Shown here in pieces: positions 3,946-38,378 of a stretch of DNA of 64,000 nucleotides (position 1 is the first letter of the stretch; each line of letters opens with the position of its first letter). The notes beneath the pieces are model-generated. The model was not told where the DNA came from. It made no database searches and saw only the letters and a list, made by a program, of their open reading frames with translations. The position numbers and the translations under genes are program-made. Where the stretch lies: positions 11,710 to 75,709 of IMG/VR virus record IMGVR_UViG_3300021400_000080, one strand, 5' to 3'. This stretch comes from a virus. Taxonomy: Duplodnaviria > Caudoviricetes.

Positions 3946-4147
3946 GTCTATCATCTGACACGATACGATGGATAGCGTACTTGATGTTGCACATCGGACA
4001 ATGGCACGGATACTCCCTTTCGTAGCTGTCCTTGTCGCAGCGTGAACAATGTCCGAGATAACGTTCCGCATATCCCTTGATAGGGATCTTCGTTCCGCAC
4101 CACGGACATACGGTCTCGCCGGGTTGTTCTTTCCACTCCCAGGTCAT
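3938..4147 (-). CDS. zinc-finger protein
   Basis: CPWC, CSRC and CPMC motifs; ATGA-coupled. Confidence 0.65.
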   Translation of the reverse strand: MTWEWKEQPGETVCPWCGTKIPIKGYAERYLGHCSRCDKDSYEREYPCHCPMCNIKYAIHRIVSDDRHE

Positions 4148-4725
4148 GCGGCCCACTCGTCCATCGACCTCTGCGGGGTCTTGCCGTCCATATCATCGAC
4201 GATCACACCTAGGATGGCCGCGAAACAATCCACGACCACACTGTTCCCTGCGAAACGGTAGATCGCACTGTTGGAGTAGGTCGGCTTTTCCGTGACCTTG
4301 CCGTTCTTGGCGGTCTTGACGGTCTTGGCATCCATCAGACGATCTATCTCATCGTCGTCGTACCCCATCAGGCGCATACATTCGCGCGGGGTCAGTTTAC
4401 GCACGCGCAATCTGGATACGTCGGTCTCATCGAGGGCATCTCCTATCTCTCCGGCATCGGACATCTTGTAGCTGCCCGACTTGTCGCGGTAGACATAGCC
4501 GACGTAGGGGTTGCCGTCCTTGTCGGTGAACACACCATCCGCGACATCGCCCATATAGCCGACATGCCCTATCTCGTGACCGATCCCGTCGTAAACGGGG
4601 ATGTCCGGACCGTGGACCTCGTGGATACCGTGGCGGTATTCCCATTCCGCGACCGCGCCCTTGAGGGCATCTGTCAGACTGTCGTATCTCTTCGCGTTCT
4701 CTTCCTTACTCAATGTGTATTCCAT
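4144..4725 (-). CDS. C5-cytosine DNA methyltransferase C-terminal subunit (motifs IX-X) fused to a small Tyr/Lys-family domain
   Basis: RKLTPRECMRLMGY (motif IX) and YRFAGNSVVV (motif X); the N-terminal ~100 aa has YDSLTDALKGA and YKMSDAGEIG. Confidence 0.85.
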   Translation of the reverse strand: MEYTLSKEENAKRYDSLTDALKGAVAEWEYRHGIHEVHGPDIPVYDGIGHEIGHVGYMGDVADGVFTDKDGNPYVGYVYRDKSGSYKMSDAGEIGDALDETDVSRLRVRKLTPRECMRLMGYDDDEIDRLMDAKTVKTAKNGKVTEKPTYSNSAIYRFAGNSVVVDCFAAILGVIVDDMDGKTPQRSMDEWAA

Positions 4726-4782
4726 TGTAGCACACTCGTTGTTCTATCCAGTGATTGTAGGTATAAATACAATTCCATACAA

Positions 4783-4968
4783 TCACATACAATCAATTGC
4801 CTTGACTACTACTCCTACCCCGCCGCCGGACCATGTGGTGATGGAGTTGCTTCTGCCGTGGGTGACGGGTGATTTGCTCTTACCGGGGAACTCCGTGAAG
4901 ATGGAATCTCCCTCGTATGCCTACATATATCCCGTAGGGTTATCGGCTCTGATCCTTATGCACTGCAT
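4783..4968 (-). CDS. stand-alone methyltransferase TRD module with in-frame TAG
   Basis: MQCIRIRADNPTGYM*AYEGDSIFTEFPGK...SNSITTWSGGGVGVVV; TAG at 4921-4923 lies inside the GYxxAxEGDSI motif. Confidence 0.75.
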
Positions 4969-5116
4969 CCTCTCTCTCCGTCATAACCATCACTGCCTGA
5001 CCCCCTCCGTTAATCGACGTTATCGTGGGGGATATTCCTCTCGGTGAATAGATCCTCTTCGCCATTATGTAACCCGATGGGATGTCCAATTCGGCTGCGA
5101 CGATTATCCGACACAT
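4940..5116 (-). CDS. stand-alone TRD module (58 aa, not in the ORF track)
   Basis: MCRIIVAAELDIPSGYIMAKRIYSPRGISPTITSINGGGQAVMVM... Confidence 0.8.
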   Translation of the reverse strand: MCRIIVAAELDIPSGYIMAKRIYSPRGISPTITSINGGGQAVMVMTEREDAVHKDQSR

Positions 5117-5288
5117 CCCAAACCACTACTCCCAATTCACCGGGTCTTGCCGTTACGGTTCCCGCTACCCCTCCCCCCATAACGGGGGTATGACGATCCC
5201 CTACATAGGTCAGGAACACACAATCCCAAACATGGGCCGTCTTGAACTTTCTCTCTTGGTTCGCCACTATCCTTACCACGTCGGACAT
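5010..5288 (-). CDS. stand-alone TRD module
   Basis: WDCVFLTYVGDRHTPVMGGGVAGTVTARPGELGVVV, similar to the 4783-4968 class. Confidence 0.65.
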   Translation of the reverse strand: MSDVVRIVANQERKFKTAHVWDCVFLTYVGDRHTPVMGGGVAGTVTARPGELGVVVWDVSDNRRSRIGHPIGLHNGEEDLFTERNIPHDNVD

Positions 5289-5458
5289 AATACCGTACCT
5301 CCTCCGTCCTTACTGCGGATCGTACTGCTCTATCCGTCTGCACTGATTATCGCCTCGCCTTTATAATGCGGGTCTGCTGCGATACGGATGATCCCCGATT
5401 GGGGGGATATACGACCCAGGTTGCTCACCTTCCAATGATTGCGGGTATCTTCTTCCAT
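5273..5458 (-). CDS. stand-alone TRD module with in-frame TAG
   Basis: ...IISADG*SSTIRSKDGGGTVL; TAG at 5330-5332 occupies the x of GxSPTI. Confidence 0.65.
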
Positions 5459-5459
5459 G

Positions 5460-5831
5460 TTAAACCTCCACCGCTATCCAACCCGGATGATTGGCGGTTA
5501 TGGTCGGGGACAATCCTCTTTCGTGATATGCTCTGCCGCCCATCTCGAACACGTTGGGAACGGGGATGCTCACCCCGACTGCATCCCATCCTTCGATGCC
5601 CAACAGATCGCGTACCCTCGGCCATATAGACACTTCCGGGGGTGCGTTGTATCTATCCGTCCTGAACCAATGTTCGGCCTCTGTGACAGGAACGGAAAGA
5701 GCATCCGCTACGCTGCGGATCGTCATCCCCTTACGCATACGCGCATCTTTAAGGACACGGGCGAGTTCTATGGAATCGAAATCCGGACGATGGGATACCG
5801 TGAACAACACATCCAATTCGATGAGTCTCAT
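5460..5831 (-). CDS. XRE-like HTH domain fused to a TRD module
   Basis: LKDARMRKGMTIRSVADALSVPVTEAEHWF followed by RAYHERGLSPTITANHPGWIAV. Confidence 0.75.
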   Translation of the reverse strand: MRLIELDVLFTVSHRPDFDSIELARVLKDARMRKGMTIRSVADALSVPVTEAEHWFRTDRYNAPPEVSIWPRVRDLLGIEGWDAVGVSIPVPNVFEMGGRAYHERGLSPTITANHPGWIAVEV

Positions 5832-5979
5832 ATCCTCTCACCAATATCTTCGGCATCACGTTACCTCCCCCGCCCGTAGGGATGGTCGGACAGATACCCT
5901 CATCGGAATAGACCCTCTTGAGACAGTCGTAGCCGTTGAGGGCGGGCAACGTGCATACCTGTTCACATCTCTTCGTCAT
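5749..5979 (-). CDS. stand-alone TRD module
   Basis: KRVYSDEGICPTIPTGGGGNVMPKILV. Confidence 0.8.
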   Translation of the reverse strand: MTKRCEQVCTLPALNGYDCLKRVYSDEGICPTIPTGGGGNVMPKILVRGYETHRIGCVVHGIPSSGFRFHRTRPCP

Positions 5980-6121
5980 GTATCAGCACCTTGATCTGTG
6001 TCGTTCTCCCGATTGCCGTGTGTATGGTCGGGGAACAATAATCGGGATCGTAGACCCTCCTGTGTTGTTCCAGCCAGCCGGGCCAATCGAGGATGGCTAT
6101 GACCTTGCAACGATTCTCCAT
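5963..6121 (-). CDS. stand-alone TRD module (52 aa, not in the ORF track)
   Basis: MENRCKVIAILDWPGWLEQHRRVYDPDYCSPTIHTAIGRTTQIKVLI. Confidence 0.8.
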   Translation of the reverse strand: MENRCKVIAILDWPGWLEQHRRVYDPDYCSPTIHTAIGRTTQIKVLIHDEEM

Positions 6122-6248
6122 ATACTGCCACCAGTTTAGGGTCCTTATAGTCCCTGGATTCTATCGTGGGGGATATTCCTCTCGAATCGTATATCCTCCC
6201 GGCTTTCTCATAGCTGCAATCAAGGGTCCCTATCTGTCTGCATCTCAT
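5976..6248 (-). CDS. stand-alone TRD module with an out-of-frame tail overlapping the next module
   Basis: MRCRQIGTLDCSYEKAGRIYDSRGISPTIESRDYKDPKLVAV. Confidence 0.8.
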   Translation of the reverse strand: MRCRQIGTLDCSYEKAGRIYDSRGISPTIESRDYKDPKLVAVYGESLQGHSHPRLARLAGTTQEGLRSRLLFPDHTHGNRENDTDQGADT

Positions 6249-6420
6249 CCTCTTCCCTCACGAATATCATGGGTTGGTTCGCCTTGGCGAAAGCCAATGT
6301 TATAGTAGGACACAAACCTCTTCCTCCCCATACGACATTACATTTGTCGAATCCGGACGGACGGTAGTTGGGGAGGACGGCTATCTTCACCAATGCCTTA
6401 ATCGGAGTCATCATCTTCAA
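6220..6420 (-). CDS. stand-alone TRD module
   Basis: CNVVWGGRGLCPTITLAFAKANQPMIFV. Confidence 0.75.
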   Translation of the reverse strand: MKMMTPIKALVKIAVLPNYRPSGFDKCNVVWGGRGLCPTITLAFAKANQPMIFVREEDEMQTDRDP

Positions 6421-6859
6421 TCCTCCTTATTATTCCAAGATGTCCGATGTCCGTAGGTACGAGGGTAGGACAGACACAATCCTCATCCAATAGGTGAGTC
6501 ACCTCGAAAGAGAGCTGCCCGAAAGCAATATCATACCCCATCGGTTCGGACTTATCGGCTACGCGATGCCCATTGGACCATTTTCTCGGATGTCTGTAAT
6601 CAAGATAACCTTTTGCCAACAAATCGTCCAACATGGCTTGCAGTCCGTCACAATCATACAATTCCCGGATCATCTCTGTTGTAAGAGGTCTGCCTTCCTC
6701 TCCGGGATAACGTCTCCATCTGGACAATCTGCGACCCCTCAATATTATGTCCAACAATTCCCTCTGTTCCTTAGAGACTTCTCCTTTCAAGCACATATCC
6801 CACGAATGGATGACATTCTCGCCTCCGCGCTTGTCCGTGACAGTCCATCCGAGATTCAT
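6398..6859 (-). CDS. larger stand-alone methyltransferase variable-region/TRD protein (153 aa)
   Basis: ATG at 6859 (ATGA overlap); DKRGGENVIHSWD...LDDLLAKGYL...LSFEVTHLLDEDCVCPTLV recalls C5-MTase variable regions. Confidence 0.75.
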   Translation of the reverse strand: MNLGWTVTDKRGGENVIHSWDMCLKGEVSKEQRELLDIILRGRRLSRWRRYPGEEGRPLTTEMIRELYDCDGLQAMLDDLLAKGYLDYRHPRKWSNGHRVADKSEPMGYDIAFGQLSFEVTHLLDEDCVCPTLVPTDIGHLGIIRRIEDDDSD

Positions 6860-7017
6860 TTTACACACTCTTCCGAGACCCATACAAGTATGAGGGGAGG
6901 GGGACACTTGATCCCCCAATTGGCTAAGACCGTTGGAGCATCCCCGGACGGGTCGAGGACGAGATCGCGGTTCCCGTAGGTTCCTTTACCCGTCAATCCC
7001 CGTCCGATGATCTTCAA
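6856..7017 (-). CDS. stand-alone TRD module (TTG start, 53 aa)
   Basis: GGTGA RBS then TTG; LKIIGRGLTGKGTYGNRDLVLDPSGDAPTVLANWGIKCPPPLILV. Confidence 0.7.
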   Translation of the reverse strand: MKIIGRGLTGKGTYGNRDLVLDPSGDAPTVLANWGIKCPPPLILVWVSEECVK

Positions 7018-7182
7018 TGCGTACTTCACCGACATAGACCAGACCCTCGATCACATTCTTAGCGAAATGTGCCGTGATAGTGGGTGCTAATCCCCCCCCC
7101 CGTAGACACGGCCGTTCTGACCGAAGTGATTATCACCGAACATAAAGACGATTATACTCTTTTTTGCTGCGGTGCGTGCCAT
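6986..7182 (-). pseudogene. TRD module frameshifted at a G10 homopolymer (7092-7101)
   Basis: ...GQNGRVYGGG then, in the shifted frame, GLAPTITAHFAKNVIEGLVYV; G8 or G11 would restore the frame. Confidence 0.7.
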
Positions 7183-8426
7183 TCCAGGTTGCCTTCCGTT
7201 ATGAGGTAATTGCTGGTCTTTCTGCCACCCTCATGACAACTTATGCACAATGCTTTCCGTTCTCCGTGTTGGGGGTTCCAGCAGAATCCTCGCCCATTCT
7301 CCTTCTCCCTCTCCGTGGACCATATCAGACCCTTCAGACGATCCTGACTAAGATAATACTTCTCGTCCACGGGTTCGGGTTCGAGGTAGTCCCTCATACA
7401 CTTGGTAAGCGGTACGGGTTTGGGCAGCTCCGGGGGTTTGCCATTCAGTTTGCTTATCACGAACAACCTCTTACGGTTCTGTGCAACTCCGTAGTCGCAC
7501 GCATTGAGGACCTTCCAGGTGTGCTGGTAGCCGATTGCGGATAACTCGTCCATCAACTCGTCGAAATTCGCCTTGAACTTCTTGGATACCATCATGGGTA
7601 CTTCTTCCATGACGAGGTACTTGGGTCTCTCCTTCTCTTCCGTATTGCGGAGGATACGAGGAACCTCGAAAGCCAGCGAGGATCTTGTTCCGCTGTCCTT
7701 CGCATTACCCGCCAACCGTCCGGCATTGGAGATGTCCTGACAGTTATGAACGATGATACCGTTCACCGTGAACGAATGGCTGTCCTTGACCGTGAGATCG
7801 TAGACATCCGTTTTCTCGAATCCGAAAGATAAATTCACTATTGGGAACCATGCGAATCCGTTTTTAAATGTGGACCCAGGATACAACGACCAATTCCCGG
7901 CGATAGCATCGGGCCGTCCGAGATAATGCGACATGGTAAGATTTTTCGCCTCTATCCATTCGGGTTCGGTAAGTGACCCATCTACTATCTTACAAGCATA
8001 GAATTTATGGTCGAAAGTGGCTCCGATTTCCTCATTACCGGATGCCTTGATACGCATAATCTCCTTATGTCCGGTCTTGCCCGCCCATTCCACGGGATGC
8101 CATTGGCCGTCGTGGGACATCACCATATTCCCGACCTCGACTTCCTCGATGGGGATGTATCCCCTCTCTTTCGTGAGGACCATATCACCCTTGCGGATGC
8201 ACGGGGGTGTCCAGAACAGAACGTCCACTTGATTCTCCCCTCCGATGTCGCGTACCTGGGTGATGTCCCCCAGGTTGCGGGTCTCTCCATGAAGGGTATC
8301 ATACGCGCGTGCGGTCGGAGGGTCGAACTCGCACTGGAATACCATCTGATAGTCGATCCCCAATCTGTCGGCAGCGGAATGGTGCGCTCCGATCCCGGAA
8401 AAGAATCCTCCGATACGCATCATCAC
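7152..8426 (-). CDS. C5-cytosine DNA methyltransferase catalytic subunit (motifs I-VIII) with a mini-intein; lacks motifs IX-X
   Basis: FFSGIGA (I), GDIT (III), TPP-[intein]-CQDIS (IV), MEEV (VI), AQNRKRLF (VIII). Confidence 0.92.
   Translation of the reverse strand: MMMRIGGFFSGIGAHHSAADRLGIDYQMVFQCEFDPPTARAYDTLHGETRNLGDITQVRDIGGENQVDVLFWTPPCIRKGDMVLTKERGYIPIEEVEVGNMVMSHDGQWHPVEWAGKTGHKEIMRIKASGNEEIGATFDHKFYACKIVDGSLTEPEWIEAKNLTMSHYLGRPDAIAGNWSLYPGSTFKNGFAWFPIVNLSFGFEKTDVYDLTVKDSHSFTVNGIIVHNCQDISNAGRLAGNAKDSGTRSSLAFEVPRILRNTEEKERPKYLVMEEVPMMVSKKFKANFDELMDELSAIGYQHTWKVLNACDYGVAQNRKRLFVISKLNGKPPELPKPVPLTKCMRDYLEPEPVDEKYYLSQDRLKGLIWSTEREKENGRGFCWNPQHGERKALCISCHEGGRKTSNYLITEGNLEWHAPQQKRV
7743..8201 (-). 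mobile_element. 153-aa mini-intein with no homing endonuclease
   Basis: Begins CIRKGDMVLT and ends VYDLTVKDSHSFTVNGIIVHN; the +1 residue is the Cys of PPCQ. Confidence 0.92.
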
Positions 8427-20636: not shown

Positions 20637-22142
20637 ATGCCCGAAAACGACAACCCGCAGACAGATTACCGCCCTATCGAGGTTCCCACTCCCGATCCCA
20701 CACGGTATTCGATTTTCAAGCAGGGTCCGAAGGGCGGTCTGACGTTCTATCCCAGGAACATCATCAAGTACCTCGCGGCGAAATGGATCGTCTACGACGG
20801 TCATACCCCACGCATATTCAACGGGCGGTCATATCAGGTCATCCCCGACAATAAGTTCGTCGCCATGGTCGCGGATTCCGTCGATGCCTACATGACGGAC
20901 ACGCTCGTATCGAAAGGGCAATACCAATCAATCTTCTTCAATGCCGAGGCGATCCTGGACTTCGACAGGGTCCCGTACTTCGAGGACCCCGAACAGAGGG
21001 ACGATTACTCCGTGGTCGAGGATCAGCGCATAGCCGGGGGTCTCTTCGCTTTCGAGAACGGCATCCTGAACACCGCCAACGACAAGTTCCTCCCCTTCAC
21101 CCATCATCTCATGGTGAGGTCGTGCTACAACTGCCGCTACGACCCCTCCGTGGAGACGTGCCGTGCGGAGAGCATAATCGAGGGGATATTGCCTGATGCC
21201 GACACGAGGAGGTTCTTCTTCGAGATGGTAGGGTCCATCCTCTTCGGGGACATGAACCCGCCCGCCATCTTTGTCATATACGGTCCGGGTGAGACGGGTA
21301 AATCCGCATTGGCGAACATGCTGACCACACTCATGGGCGACGATATGGTATCGAGGGAAACCCTCAAGCAGCTCGGCACGGATAAATACTCCCCCGCAGA
21401 ATTGGAGGGCAAACGTCTCAACGTGTCAGGGGAGACGGGTGCTGTGAAGAACAAGTACACCACCCCCGACGGGGAATTGATAAAACAGCTTTCGGACGGT
21501 CAGGAGATCTCGGTCCAGCGCAAATACGGGCATCCCTATAAGATCCGCAACACCGCCAAACTGTTGTTCCTCACCAACACCGTACCGGACTTCGGTGACA
21601 CATCCAGCGGTCTCTACCGCCGCCTTTATACCATCCCATGCCGCACGAAACAGGATCCGGCACTCAACATCTACAAACTCATGACAGACCCCCAATCCCT
21701 TTCATGGCTGACTAACCGCGCCCTTGAGGGATACATGAGGGTCAAATCCAGGGGATTCAAGTTCGAGCCGTCCGAAGAGATGCAGAAGGAATGGCAGAAC
21801 ATGAGGGTCCAGGACCCCGTGTTCGACTTCCTCTACACGACATTCGATTCCACGGACATCCACGATATATGCGGTCAGATCGTAGCGCACTCCGAGTACA
21901 AGAGGACGAAGTTCATCTACGACAGATACCGCGAGTTCTGTTACGCGAACAACGTGACCCCGTTGGGATCGCGCAAGTTCTACGAGAAGATGAGGAACGA
22001 GACCGAATTGGACATCGGGAAGAACCCCGTTATGTTCCGTGTGGACGGAGTACCTACGAGTACCCGTGTGTTCCAATGGAAAGAATCGGTCCTCAAGGCG
22101 CATTTACAGTCCAAGACGGGTAAGGACAAGGGGAAGCCATGA
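20637..22142 (+). CDS. D5/P4-type SF3 replicative helicase (no recognisable primase domain)
   Basis: FAFENGIL (D5_N), GPGETGKS Walker A, NTVPDFGDTSSGLYRRL, C-terminal winged helix. Confidence 0.9.
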   Translation: MPENDNPQTDYRPIEVPTPDPTRYSIFKQGPKGGLTFYPRNIIKYLAAKWIVYDGHTPRIFNGRSYQVIPDNKFVAMVADSVDAYMTDTLVSKGQYQSIFFNAEAILDFDRVPYFEDPEQRDDYSVVEDQRIAGGLFAFENGILNTANDKFLPFTHHLMVRSCYNCRYDPSVETCRAESIIEGILPDADTRRFFFEMVGSILFGDMNPPAIFVIYGPGETGKSALANMLTTLMGDDMVSRETLKQLGTDKYSPAELEGKRLNVSGETGAVKNKYTTPDGELIKQLSDGQEISVQRKYGHPYKIRNTAKLLFLTNTVPDFGDTSSGLYRRLYTIPCRTKQDPALNIYKLMTDPQSLSWLTNRALEGYMRVKSRGFKFEPSEEMQKEWQNMRVQDPVFDFLYTTFDSTDIHDICGQIVAHSEYKRTKFIYDRYREFCYANNVTPLGSRKFYEKMRNETELDIGKNPVMFRVDGVPTSTRVFQWKESVLKAHLQSKTGKDKGKP

Positions 22143-34373: not shown

Positions 34374-37300
34374 ATGGCATTGAACACGGCTTGTTCGTTG
34401 AATGAGCAAGGCATGAGCATAAAATGGGTCGGTATCCTGATTTTAGGTATGGCCGCCCTATTTGGATGTATCGTAGCATTTGAATCGGATGATGCGGATG
34501 CAGCTACCGCCAACCCCAATTATAGGGATGGGGATTGGGGTTATGATCTCGTTACGGAAAACGGTCTTACTACCGCCAAGATCGTATCATACTCCGGAAC
34601 AGGCGGGGGTGCGATAACCATCCCCACTACAATCGGAGGATATACCGTAACCCAGGTCGGTAAAAATGCAGACTACGGTAACAACAATGTTTTTGAACCG
34701 ACATTGGTCGCAACCGATCTCATAATCCCCGATGGGATTTTGAAAATCAATAAGTTCGCATGTCAGAATCTTTCCAATTTCACGGGTACGTTAAGTCTCG
34801 GTAACACAGTAACTACGCTTGGGCTTAGTTGTTTTAGTAATGGTGGTTTTACAGGAACTCTGACACTGCCAAGAAGTATTACCACAATTATTTATTCAAC
34901 AGGTAATTACGCAGCATTTTACAATTGTGCCGGTTTCACGGAATTAGTTATCGAGAACGGTATGTCGGGGGACATCGGACATGATATGTTCCGTAATTGT
35001 ACGGGATTCACGGGTGCATTGGTGATACCGGATAGTGTAACTTATATCGGAATGAGGGCATTTCAGGGTTGTTCCGGATTCACATCCTTGTCGATAGGAT
35101 CCAACGTGACTACGATATATGATAGCGCATTTTACAATTGTACCGGATTCAAGGGCAGTCTCACGATTCCCGACAGTGTTACGACATTCGGAGGATATTA
35201 TTCGAGTACCAACCAGGGTATATTCCAGAATTGCAGAGGATTCGACGGAGTATTGAAAATCGGTAATGGAATCACTAAAATTCCAGCAGCATGTTTCATG
35301 AATTGCAGCGGATTCACCGAATTGATCTTAGGAAATTCCTTGACCGAGATTCAGGATTATTCGGATTATGGTGTATTTAAAGGTTGTACGGGATTGACGG
35401 GTAATCTTACGCTACCGAATACGCTTACCAAGATAGGTAACAGTGCGTTCGATGGATGCAGCGGCCTTACTGGAGCATTAGTGATACCCAACAATGTAAC
35501 ATACATCGGATCAGTGGCTTTCAGGAATTGCAGCGGTTTCACTTCATTGACATTGAGTAACAGTCTTACCGAAATCAAGTCAAGTACGTTCAGCGGATGC
35601 ACATCCATGACGGGTGATCTGATCATCCCTGACAGTGTGACAACCATATACTACCCATTCAGTTCTTCTTCTTCTACGAGCAGTCCTTTTTACAATTGCG
35701 GTTTCGGAGGATCGTTGATTATAGGCGATGGACTTACAGCGGTTGGACAATACATGTTCGACGGATGCGTGTTCAACGATAATCTGGTTATCGGAGATTC
35801 GATTACGGACATCCCATCTGGTGCATTTGCATGTTGTAAGACTGCGACAGGTACGCTTACCATCGGAAGCGGGGTTCAATCAATCGGAAACAGCGTATTC
35901 TATCAGTATAAATTCACAGGGTCTCTCGTATTACCCAACGGTCTGAAAACCATCAGGGATCAGGCATTTGCTCAATGCACCGGATTCACGGGATCTCTTG
36001 TAATCCCGTCCACCGTGACAACGATCGGAGTCCATAGTTCATCCACATCAAATTCATCCGGAGCATTTAGAGGATGTACCGGATTCACGGGTGCATTGGT
36101 GATACCGGATAGCGTGACTTTACTCGGAGATAGGACATTCCAGGGATGCACGGGACTTACCGGAACATTGACGATAGGTACGGGGGTCACGGACATCAAT
36201 CCGTATTGTTTCTATGGTTGTAAATTCACGGGTAATCTGAATATTCCCGGGAACGTGGTTAAGATTCTTGATTATGCGTTCGGCAACAATACCGGATTCA
36301 CATCCCTTACATTACAGGAAGGTCTCGATCTGATTTGGACCCGTGCATTTTCGGAGTGTACCGGGATGACGGGAGTGTTGGCAATACCTGATTCCGTGAC
36401 CACGTTGGGTCCGAAGTCGTATGCGAATGGTTGTTTCTACAATTGTTCCGGATTCACCGGACTGAACCTTGGAGACGGAGTGGAAATCATCGGGGATACC
36501 TGTTTCTGGAATTGTACCGCTATGGCAGGAAGTCTGATCATCCCGGATAGTGTGGAATATATCGGAAAGTGTGCATTTTATGAATGTGCCTTCGATGGTA
36601 CTCTTACTATCGGGAATAATGTATCGGAGATAGGATACGGAGCATTTTACAGTTATAATCACGGATCGTTCATAGGCGATCTGGTAATCCCTGATAGTGT
36701 GACTGTGTTCGGGAATCCCAACAGTCAGGGTTATAATCAAGAGCCGATTTTCTGGTATGCGGGATTCACGGGTTCGCTGACTATCGGGAACGGGATAACC
36801 GTCATTCCCCAAGGCACGTTCTATGGATGCGGATTCACAGGTACGCTTACCATCGGGAATAACGTGACACAGATAGGATCATACGATGGAAATACAGGTG
36901 CTTTTGAGAATGTACCGTTCACAGGCGCATTGGTCATCCCGGATAGTGTGACTAAGATCATGGGACGTTCATTCAAGGGATGCAGCGGATTCACGACATT
37001 ATCCCTCGGTTCGGGATTGACACAGATCACGGGATATGATACATTTAGGGATTGCACCGGATTCACGGGTGCATTGGTGATACCCGATACCGTCCAGTAT
37101 CTCGGACCCAAAAATACATCAGGTACTACCTTTACAGGAGGTCGTGCGTTCATGGGATGTACGGGATTCACATTCCTTACCATCGGTAAGAATGTGGAAC
37201 TCATCGGACCCGGAACGTTCAGTGGATGTACGGGATTCAGAGGGGACCTGGTGATTCCCGACAGTGTTGTAGAGATCGCGTATGGATCATATTATCATCC

Positions 37301-38378
37301 GGATACAACCACTCCCTTCTATAATTGCGGATTCGACGGTTCGCTCATCATCGGAGACGGGTTGTCAGCTGTTTATGACTATATGTTCAACGGCTGTGCG
37401 TTCCAGAACGACCTTGTAATCGGAGATTCCATCGTAGGTATTCCCATAGGTACTTTTGACAGTTGCAGGAATTGTACGGGTACTCTGACCCTGGGAAACG
37501 GTCTGAAATCAATAGAGAGACAAGCGTTCAGCGGTTATAAATTCACAGGGGAATTGATACTTCCCGAAGGAATGACTGAATTGAAATACGGTGCTTTTGA
37601 GAATTGCAAGGGATTCACGGGACCTCTTGTCATTCCGGATAGCATGATAACCTTGGGTAATAACAATTCATCGAATAATGATGGGGTATTCGCAGGTTGT
37701 TCCGGATTCACATCCCTTGTCCTCGGCAGCTCGCTTGAGATGATAGGCCGCAGTACTTTTGCATCATGCACCGGTATGACAGGCGATCTGATAATCCCGG
37801 ATAGCGTGACTGTGATCGGATACAATGCGTTCAACGGTTGTTCATTCACATCATTGGATATAGGCAGCGGATTAACGTCCATTCCCGGACAGGCATTTTA
37901 CGGAAATAAATTCGCAGGAACACTGGTGATCCCGGATAATATACAGACGATAGCAAGCCACGCATTTTATTTCAATAATAATTCAAGAGTGGATACATTG
38001 GTGTTGGGTAGGGGACTCACATCCATCGGAACTTACTCATTCGATACAGCGTATGCAGCACAATCCAGACTGGATAATATCGTGGCATTATCCGACCCCA
38101 CTATCGGCACGGGTGCGTTCAGAGGATCAACAGTATCCCAAATCCTGAATCTGACTGGTTCGGATCTGACCAATGTCGTACCTGGAAACGGAGACATCCC
38201 CTCGACAGCTACGATCCGCACAGCTTTCGAGGATACGGCTATGCTCCAACACACTACCGAGACCATCGTGGTAGATAAAGAAGGGATGGAATACAGTATC
38301 ATGCGGGTGATCCCGATTATAATGGCATTGGCAATACTGATCGGGGTTGCATATTACATCAGGGGGAATAAGATATGA
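34374..38378 (+). CDS. BspA-type leucine-rich-repeat (LRR_5) adhesin anchored by a capsid-like helix 2
   Basis: Many CTGFTG.L.IPDSVT.IG..AF repeats; signal peptide (start probably 34413); C-terminus SIMRVIPIIMALAILIGVAYYIRGNKI. Confidence 0.9.
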   Translation: MALNTACSLNEQGMSIKWVGILILGMAALFGCIVAFESDDADAATANPNYRDGDWGYDLVTENGLTTAKIVSYSGTGGGAITIPTTIGGYTVTQVGKNADYGNNNVFEPTLVATDLIIPDGILKINKFACQNLSNFTGTLSLGNTVTTLGLSCFSNGGFTGTLTLPRSITTIIYSTGNYAAFYNCAGFTELVIENGMSGDIGHDMFRNCTGFTGALVIPDSVTYIGMRAFQGCSGFTSLSIGSNVTTIYDSAFYNCTGFKGSLTIPDSVTTFGGYYSSTNQGIFQNCRGFDGVLKIGNGITKIPAACFMNCSGFTELILGNSLTEIQDYSDYGVFKGCTGLTGNLTLPNTLTKIGNSAFDGCSGLTGALVIPNNVTYIGSVAFRNCSGFTSLTLSNSLTEIKSSTFSGCTSMTGDLIIPDSVTTIYYPFSSSSSTSSPFYNCGFGGSLIIGDGLTAVGQYMFDGCVFNDNLVIGDSITDIPSGAFACCKTATGTLTIGSGVQSIGNSVFYQYKFTGSLVLPNGLKTIRDQAFAQCTGFTGSLVIPSTVTTIGVHSSSTSNSSGAFRGCTGFTGALVIPDSVTLLGDRTFQGCTGLTGTLTIGTGVTDINPYCFYGCKFTGNLNIPGNVVKILDYAFGNNTGFTSLTLQEGLDLIWTRAFSECTGMTGVLAIPDSVTTLGPKSYANGCFYNCSGFTGLNLGDGVEIIGDTCFWNCTAMAGSLIIPDSVEYIGKCAFYECAFDGTLTIGNNVSEIGYGAFYSYNHGSFIGDLVIPDSVTVFGNPNSQGYNQEPIFWYAGFTGSLTIGNGITVIPQGTFYGCGFTGTLTIGNNVTQIGSYDGNTGAFENVPFTGALVIPDSVTKIMGRSFKGCSGFTTLSLGSGLTQITGYDTFRDCTGFTGALVIPDTVQYLGPKNTSGTTFTGGRAFMGCTGFTFLTIGKNVELIGPGTFSGCTGFRGDLVIPDSVVEIAYGSYYHPDTTTPFYNCGFDGSLIIGDGLSAVYDYMFNGCAFQNDLVIGDSIVGIPIGTFDSCRNCTGTLTLGNGLKSIERQAFSGYKFTGELILPEGMTELKYGAFENCKGFTGPLVIPDSMITLGNNNSSNNDGVFAGCSGFTSLVLGSSLEMIGRSTFASCTGMTGDLIIPDSVTVIGYNAFNGCSFTSLDIGSGLTSIPGQAFYGNKFAGTLVIPDNIQTIASHAFYFNNNSRVDTLVLGRGLTSIGTYSFDTAYAAQSRLDNIVALSDPTIGTGAFRGSTVSQILNLTGSDLTNVVPGNGDIPSTATIRTAFEDTAMLQHTTETIVVDKEGMEYSIMRVIPIIMALAILIGVAYYIRGNKI

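Follow-up and report, generated by a model that had tools for sequence, protein, structure and literature searches.

The stretch of DNA analysed here, 64,000 nucleotides long and referred to below as the window, covers bases 11710-75709 of the virus record IMGVR_UViG_3300021400_000080 (IMG/VR; Duplodnaviria, Caudoviricetes), a complete genome of 75.7 kb with direct terminal repeats. On the minus strand of the window, we find a locus related to C5-cytosine DNA methyltransferases (MTases) that consists of two core genes, i.e. one for a catalytic subunit with motifs I-VIII and one for a subunit with motifs IX-X, and of 12 modules resembling target recognition domains (TRDs) that fill the 2.4 kb between them, with neighbouring modules always differing in reading frame. 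Throughout, m1-m12 are the window modules, L-numbers are related contigs, and P-numbers are database proteins; ratios of nonsynonymous to synonymous change (dN/dS), and the corresponding proportions pN and pS, come from Nei-Gojobori counts made with our own script. The locus holds the following features:

7152..8426, minus strand: catalytic subunit gene, with motifs I-VIII and a C-end TRD0 (PF00145, E 7e-36, profile positions 1-227).
7743..8201, minus strand: mini-intein of 153 amino acids (aa) at the catalytic Cys of motif IV (TPP-C...VHN-CQD; PF14890, E 5.6e-10).
7155..7290, minus strand, approximate limits: TRD0, the conserved TRD-like segment GFCWNPQHGERKALCISCHEGGRKTSNYLI that ends the catalytic gene.
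6986..7182, minus strand: m1, of the TRD1 family (...PTITAH.AKN..EGLVYVG), with its ATG at 7182 and split by a G10 run at 7092-7101.
6856..7035, minus strand: m2, a 59-aa free module (GDAPTVLANWG); dN/dS 0.18 against L100, with an orthologue in L008.
6398..6859, minus strand: m3, a 153-aa module with a large insertion; dN/dS 0.07 against L100 (27.5 synonymous and 8.5 nonsynonymous changes).
6220..6420, minus strand: m4, 64-66 aa (GLCPTITLAFAKANQP), with AAGGAGG before its start; dN/dS 0.22 against L005 and 0.23 against L100.
5976..6248, minus strand: m5, an open reading frame (ORF) with a core of ~46 aa and an unconserved tail over m6; absent from L005.
5963..6121, minus strand: m6, 52 aa; dN/dS 0.10 against L005 and 0.05 against L008.
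5749..5979, minus strand: m7, a core of ~50 aa and a tail; dN/dS 0.04 against L005, with P0191 as a 53-aa free form.
5460..5831, minus strand: m8, 123 aa, with an insertion resembling a helix-turn-helix (weak HTH_31 match); dN/dS 0.08 against L005 (17 synonymous and 5 nonsynonymous changes).
5273..5458, minus strand: m9, class-B-like, with an in-frame TAG at 5330-5332 that is kept in L100.
5010..5288, minus strand: m10, class B (GDRHTPV...GTVTARPGELGVVV), a core of ~57 aa and a tail; dN/dS 0.13 against L005.
4940..5116, minus strand: m11, 58 aa (RIYSPRGISPTIT); pN 0.25 versus pS 0.69 against L008.
4783..4968, minus strand: m12, class B, with an in-frame TAG at 4921-4923; orthologues in L100 and L008.
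4144..4725, minus strand: C-terminal subunit gene, with an N-domain of ~100 aa followed by motifs IX-X (PF00145, profile positions 254-322, E 2.4e-6).

The PF00145 match is spread over the two core genes, with 124.7 bits in 7152-8426 and 27.7 bits in 4144-4725 (curated cut-off 22), which agrees with a sequence-only reading of the window that had placed motifs I-VIII in the first gene and motifs IX-X apart in the second. Within the catalytic gene the match is itself broken in two (profile positions 1-71 and 71-227), and the translations contain the motifs FSGIG, PP-intein-CQ (PPCQ after splicing), QNRKR, RKLTPRE, and GNSVVV. Motif VI (7600-7610, minus strand) reads EEV, not ENV, nearly family-wide and including unsplit relatives; ENV is found only in L099. 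The catalytic precursor has 424 aa, or ~271 aa once the intein is removed, and homologues that are catalytic only (245-305 aa) form more than 100 clusters. The intein scores 39.7 bits against PF14890 (cut-off 35.8) and runs from CIRKGD to IVHN, followed by C, with no endonuclease domain. It is missing from L005, which is 92% identical and has a precise empty site (TPPCQDIS), and it is present in L008 and in several database relatives (P0025, P0027, P0028, and P0039), so we consider it a mobile insertion.

TRD0 aligns with GF.FEP.DG..AHTITTR.G.RKTDN..I in all relatives, both split and unsplit, and neither core gene of the window has a variable module in cis beyond it. The IX-X protein has 20 stand-alone homologues, most of which carry a class-B TRD in place of the N-domain found in the window. 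Residues 1-100 of the window subunit are not a TRD, and both the N-domain and a class-B TRD occur in L008 and P0009; the N-domain has no Pfam match and gave only sub-threshold, unnamed matches in the Atlas search. The IX-X gene is preceded by a 57-nt AT-rich spacer (4726-4782) with a TTTATA element and no Shine-Dalgarno (SD) site; in L005, L100, and L102, this spacer is conserved at 89-92%. The corresponding stretch of L008 is part of a coding sequence that joins a module to IX-X; in this genome, a class-B module of the m12 class and the IX-X gene share a single frame.

The modules of the array fall into two motif classes, with R[IV]Y...G.xPT[IL] as the core of class A and GD[GS]I...xT[IL]T...GVV as that of class B. 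A six-frame search of the whole 75.7 kb with R[IV]Y..G.[SCA]PT[ILV] returns 5 strict and 7 loose matches, compared with 0.1 strict and 1.5 loose matches in shuffled sequence. All of these class-A matches fall within the array, in support of the R[VI]Y-type motif that had been noticed there. An ATG start is present in 12/12 modules, and 10 of these have an SD-like 4-mer at -4 to -17 (background 19.7%; P = 4e-6); the ATG of m3 overlaps the stop of m2 (ATGA). Frame changes between modules go both ways (+1 and -1) with no shared slippery motif, and 11 of the 12 junctions in the window are without a repeat tract.

The sequence-only reading had listed ~12 small ORFs between the core genes. The number and the alternating frames stand, but three modules (m1, m9, and m12) are not open. 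Specifically, 6986-7182 is not one ORF, as it stops after 31 aa with its second half one frame over, while 5273-5458 and 4783-4968, also taken to be open, are those with an in-frame TAG; in addition, the start of m2 had been placed at 7017, and its ATG is at 7035. Also missing from that reading were TRD0, the intein, the three interruptions, the fused forms in relatives, and a layer of G runs and (GA)n tracts. This last layer shifts the picture from a fixed library of subunits to a partly phase-variable one.

Relatives in which the enzyme is unsplit (P0099, P0103, P0108, P0115, and P0118; 47-54% identity, 357-390 aa) have motifs I-VIII, TRD0, exactly one class-A module, and motifs IX-X, in this order. 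When compared using phmmer, P0099 residues 9-198 align with M.HhaI residues 16-197 and residues 307-356 with HhaI residues 269-314, and the module in P0099 occupies the place of HhaI residues 198-268. Because of the alignment with unsplit relatives, the free modules are seen to be the exact counterpart of an ordinary enzyme's variable region, cut at both ends. The earlier proposal that the minigenes are TRDs is thus borne out, with each corresponding exactly to a single TRD of these relatives, and m7 is the module closest to the TRD of the single-chain proteins (aligned with P0099). The AlphaFold2 model of this unsplit relative, as opposed to the window's own chains, has a mean pLDDT (predicted local distance difference test) of 84 and matches M.MpeI and M.HhaI at Z 31-33 (33.5 for 4dkj and 31.6 for entries of HhaI; 296-306 residues covered), which is consistent with an M.HhaI-like two-domain fold for P0099.

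A profile of 19 modules matches 1916 proteins among 1.84 billion representatives. The best matches include proteins of 52-57 aa with one module (P0161, P0191, and P0200; the 53-aa P0161 is the m6 module in free-standing form), proteins of 93-118 aa with two, and proteins of 178-199 aa with 3-4 modules and no Pfam domain (P0154 and P0157). They also include chains of 5-6 modules that end in IX-X with the catalytic domain absent (P0142 and P0150), as well as classical full-length multi-TRD enzymes (P0148 and P0156). In relatives, the same modules occur free, in fused chains of 2-7, or joined to either core gene. For example, m3 has as its homologue a 149-aa gene of L098, an m5-like TRD is joined to the catalytic gene in L008 and P0023, and an m8-type module is also found inside the poly-TRD protein P0142. 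Similarly, the module YIEIPTWPEY... is part of a four-module ORF in L014 and has its own ATG in L013, and covalent linkage thus appears to be optional in the family.

The same order of catalytic gene, row of small genes, and IX-X gene is found in L005-L009, L096, L098-L100, and L102, all of which are independent assemblies (other samples, other assemblers). L009 and L098 have clean small ORFs of 43-62 aa, each with an ATG that overlaps the preceding stop (ATGA) and a GGGAGG site upstream. Alignment of the window with L005 reveals blocks of 88-94% identity broken by whole-module gains and losses, with the same pattern in L100 and L102. Across related genomes, the split layout is kept and array content differs by whole modules. 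These comparisons support the view that the modules behave as exchangeable cassettes, gained or lost whole between relatives that are 88-92% identical, in keeping with the interchangeability of TRDs proposed from the sequence alone.

Selection on the modules is most evident when frames are compared. For m4, m6, m7, m8, and m10 pooled, the window and L005 differ with an own-frame dN/dS of 0.10 (46 synonymous and 18 nonsynonymous changes), while the two other frames of the same five modules give 2.5 and 1.8. Against L100, m1-m4 pooled have a dN/dS of 0.15, and both parts of m1 remain low in their own frames, with 0.08 before the G10 run and 0.07 after it (4 synonymous and 1 nonsynonymous changes). 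The core genes have values of 0.08-0.19 against L005 and L100 (catalytic 0.08-0.17; IX-X 0.19). A dN/dS near 1 had been named beforehand as a sign of decay; at 0.04-0.23 in their own frames, the modules are not decaying. Own-frame constraint with other frames above 1 argues that each module is translated in its own frame, and separate translation is well supported by this pattern. The split layout has also persisted across pS 0.2-0.4, and together these data support the modules as real, separately initiated coding units under purifying selection.

The loci of all relatives contain simple repeats, i.e. G8-G11 runs at Gly-Gly-Gly positions after PT[IL] and in TRD0, and (GA)6-(GA)11 tracts at ERER positions in the motif V-VI linker, before TRD0, and at module N-termini. 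There are 2-6 tracts per locus, and they are present even in L099, with a catalytic gene that is only ~44% identical. In total, we find 39 tracts in 26.75 kb of loci versus 10 in 150.6 kb of flanks, a 22-fold difference in density (P = 1.5e-23), and several of the flank tracts sit in other methyltransferase genes. Gly-Gly-Gly is written as pure G9 in 16/62 cases within loci and 9/161 outside, and ERER as pure (GA)6 in 29/40 cases within loci; this codon purity points to selection on the nucleotide repeat itself.

Tract lengths differ in ways that change reading frames. In L009, L013, and L014, the catalytic gene misses its in-frame length by exactly one GA unit, and L011, L013, L014, and L098 have the TRD-IX-X gene broken at a G8/G9 run. 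In L005 and L102, m4 is frameshifted at G11 and m10 at G10; in the window, both modules are fixed ON with their tracts broken. P0021 (303 aa) and P0022 (262 aa) are 99% identical and differ in frame after the G tract in TRD0, such that one finishes TRD0 and stops and the other continues into the next module. The window keeps only one tract, the G10 of m1, which is OFF: translation from the ATG at 7182 meets a TAG at 7087-7089 after 31 aa, and the LAPTITAH half lies one frame over, behind the run. With G11 or G8, m1 would read as an intact module of ~64 aa. The run is also G10 in L100 and L102, with the module OFF in both; in L102, the following base differs. Overall, the tract pattern fits slipped-strand phase variation, and switching would then take place at the DNA level.

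The N6/N4 and Dam-like DNA methyltransferase genes that this virus group also carries contain long G/C runs (10-12) too: one lies 5.8 kb ahead of the window, at genome position 5869, and others are at L096 3217, L099 947, and L012 3400 and 3864. In L096, a Dam-like gene is split at a G12 run.

The two other interruptions are amber codons. The m9 TAG is kept in L100 (about 5750) even though the module is only ~75% identical there at the nucleotide level, and the 13 codons past it have 4 synonymous and 0 nonsynonymous changes between the window and L100. The position of the m12 TAG is Glu in L100 and L008, and in L008 a TAG (5584-5586) occupies this alignment position in another class-B module. 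Read-through of the m9 and m12 codons is possible if the host is a pyrrolysine-using archaeon, although the conservation after the m9 TAG could instead reflect constraint on the overlapping start signals of m10.

The best public phage match for the catalytic subunit is Caudoviricetes sp. vir335 (BK063680.1, L104; 40% identity with P0021, the intein-less L005 protein that is 92% identical to that of the window). The same virus is the best public phage match for a D5-type primase (20637-22142; 30% identity, E 1e-46), and its record gives Methanomassiliicoccales as host. Because the catalytic subunit and the primase both match vir335 best, the virus may be an archaeal gut virus, possibly one of gut methanogens. 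Methanomassiliicoccales read TAG as pyrrolysine. Within the viral genome, TAG terminates only 1/50 ORFs of at least 150 aa, and genes are not clearly longer when TAG is recoded as a sense codon genome-wide; a tRNA gene search of the genome returned none, and there is therefore no virus-borne amber suppressor. No match to the locus was found by blastn among public phages, and no relative in a scan of viral contigs with the IX-X protein, while GTDB genomes scanned with an IX-X profile contain only distant ordinary C5-MTases (≤45% identity), with no provirus and no host. In the array itself, we find no Rfam matches, no long direct or inverted repeats, and no promoters or terminators above background. 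Given the lack of long repeats and Rfam matches, readings based on inversion or shufflon-type switching and on introns or ribozymes were dropped.

How could such a locus work? We propose that one operon probably runs from the catalytic gene to m12, with the IX-X gene behind its own AT-rich spacer. Ribosomes would make the catalytic subunit (motifs I-VIII and TRD0), active after the intein splices out, and coupled re-initiation at overlapping ATGs with SD-like sites would then yield the free TRD peptides, of which about nine (50-150 aa) are intact, with the IX-X subunit also made. The two core subunits would associate as in M.AquI, and any one TRD, whether TRD0 acting in cis or one of the free modules acting in trans, would fill the slot between TRD0 and motif IX that the single module occupies in unsplit relatives. 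The TRD in that slot would set the methylated sequence, and virus DNA would in this way be shielded simultaneously from many restriction systems. Across the wider family, tracts of G8-11 and (GA)6-11 would decide which modules are made or fused, and sometimes whether the core is, giving mixed populations. The gene structure, the selection on each module, the turnover of cassettes, and the enrichment of repeats with alternative frame states are seen directly, whereas operon transcription, separate translation, trans binding, per-module specificity, and phase switching of the DNA are steps that we infer.

On these grounds, we consider it fairly probable that the locus encodes a functional viral C5-cytosine DNA methyltransferase that is split and has many modules, with these acting in trans. 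Trans action is argued because no core gene has a variable module in cis beyond TRD0, because the modules are as constrained as the core and keep their own start signals, and because they occur free or fused without apparent penalty. A more specific version can be offered only tentatively, namely a holoenzyme of three separately made parts (catalytic, IX-X, and any one of about ten recognition subunits of 50-150 aa), with the expressed set varied stochastically as G runs and GA repeats slip and, if the host is an archaeon that uses pyrrolysine, possibly also through amber read-through.

Several points weigh against a working enzyme with modules in trans. Three of the 12 modules are interrupted in this genome, and m5, m7, and m10 run on over the next module as unconserved tails of 26-45 aa. 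In all three relatives seen, the m1 G10 tract is of a length that leaves the module OFF, and most of the family has EEV instead of ENV in motif VI. Even inside the unsplit P0099, the module itself is predicted by AlphaFold2 with a pLDDT <50. Assembly of the parts in trans, like the making of free peptides and their binding to the core, is argued indirectly, and TRD0 in cis might suffice, without need of free modules. Lastly, sequencing errors may in single cases account for a difference in homopolymer length from one assembly to another.

Alternatively, the only active enzyme might be one of two subunits, i.e. the catalytic chain carrying TRD0 and the IX-X chain, with the modules as a reservoir of spare cassettes awaiting recombination or slippage fusion. 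This would be in line with the whole-module gains and losses, with one junction that is recombined at the MRCR start, and with the TRD0 G tract of L005, L008, L096, and L098, whose frame sets whether the catalytic gene ends or reads on into the next module. We consider it unlikely, however, since the modules are constrained as strongly as the core genes and retain ATG and SD signals that silent cassettes do not need, and since long repeats, direct or inverted, that could drive frequent exchange are absent from the array.

It is also conceivable that modules work only when covalently joined, through ribosomal frameshifting or transcriptional slippage, into a classical enzyme of a single or few chains. 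Relatives do have modules fused with one another, 2-7 to a chain, or with the gene for either core subunit, and polymerases slip on G runs and (GA)n tracts. We nevertheless find this quite improbable for the window, where all but one junction is tract-free and shifts of +1 and -1 share no slippery motif, where every module starts at an ATG of its own, mostly behind an SD-like site, and the stop-start overlaps are typical of coupled separate genes, and where the split state has been held over pS 0.2-0.4. That the array is a decaying multispecific methyltransferase, or a product of frameshift errors in assembly, is very improbable: the three interrupted modules (one G10, two TAG) and the unconserved C-terminal tails could suggest it, but own-frame dN/dS is low with wrong frames above 1, independent assemblies of other samples reproduce the frame layout exactly, and both halves of the interrupted m1 are still constrained.

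Elsewhere in the virus, a 1334-aa protein (window 34374-38378, plus strand) contains ten BspA-type leucine-rich repeat stretches (PF13306, E 1e-166) and is probably a host-adhesion or tail-fibre protein. A second PF00145 match, weak and short of the cut-off (18 bits; profile positions 2-111), is located outside the window in a 221-aa ORF (genome 2922-3587).

Our literature searches turned up no account of C5 TRDs encoded as free-standing genes, nor of phage C5-MTases switched by repeats. Among temperate phages of Bacillus, multispecific C5-MTases (M.SPRI, M.Phi3TI, M.Rho11sI, and M.H2I) are known from the work of the Trautner laboratory. The locus resembles these in having one core with several TRDs of ~40-60 aa between motifs VIII and IX and a conserved T[LIV] core, and in being phage-borne and presumably protective against many restriction systems. 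Tandem TRDs between VIII and IX, which define the multispecific type, are present here as TRD0 and the 12 modules. By contrast, the Bacillus phages array their TRDs within one chain (PMC12707154), with all TRDs and the core in one polypeptide, whereas here there are 12 separate genes, the two core genes are separate as well, and repeat tracts or amber codons interrupt some modules.

Two-part enzymes such as M.AquI and M.EcoHK31I, together with fragment complementation of M.BspRI, M.BsuRI, M.HhaI, and M.SssI, show that parts of C5-MTases can assemble (PMC3404938). As in M.AquI, the split lies between VIII and IX, with the catalytic gene ending after TRD0 and IX-X separate. In the relatives L009 and L012, the second chain is a TRD followed by IX-X, like the M.AquI beta subunit, while that of the window starts with a non-TRD domain. 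M.AquI and M.EcoHK31I have two fixed parts and one specificity; the locus described here adds a third class of part, i.e. many alternative free TRDs.

Phase-variable methyltransferases with simple repeats include the Type III mod and Type I hsdS/hsdM phasevarions (PMC5909438, PMC7383803). Here too, homopolymer and dinucleotide tracts in coding sequence set the frame; the near-identical P0021 and P0022 differ in frame past their tract, and the m1 tract is G10 in the window, L100, and L102 alike. However, phasevarions are cellular N6-adenine enzymes that switch as a whole, whereas the tracts of this family lie in single modules and the core of a viral C5 enzyme. In Type I systems, specificity comes from a separate protein, HsdS, which is exchangeable between related cores (PMC12707154). 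HsdS has an unrelated fold with two TRDs per subunit, a fixed stoichiometry, and adenine methylation, and the likeness is thus one of analogy only.

If our reading is true, C5 enzymes would have an exchangeable specificity subunit, functionally similar to HsdS, and one enzyme core could write many methylation patterns. If the modules act in trans, C5 target recognition would be more portable than known, with a peptide of ~50 aa docking on a shared core, and the array would be a natural toolkit for programmable cytosine methylation. The repeat tracts of the family would represent a viral case of phase-variable methylation specificity. For the virus, the locus would mean protection against a dozen restriction systems in 2.4 kb of DNA, reshuffled module by module.

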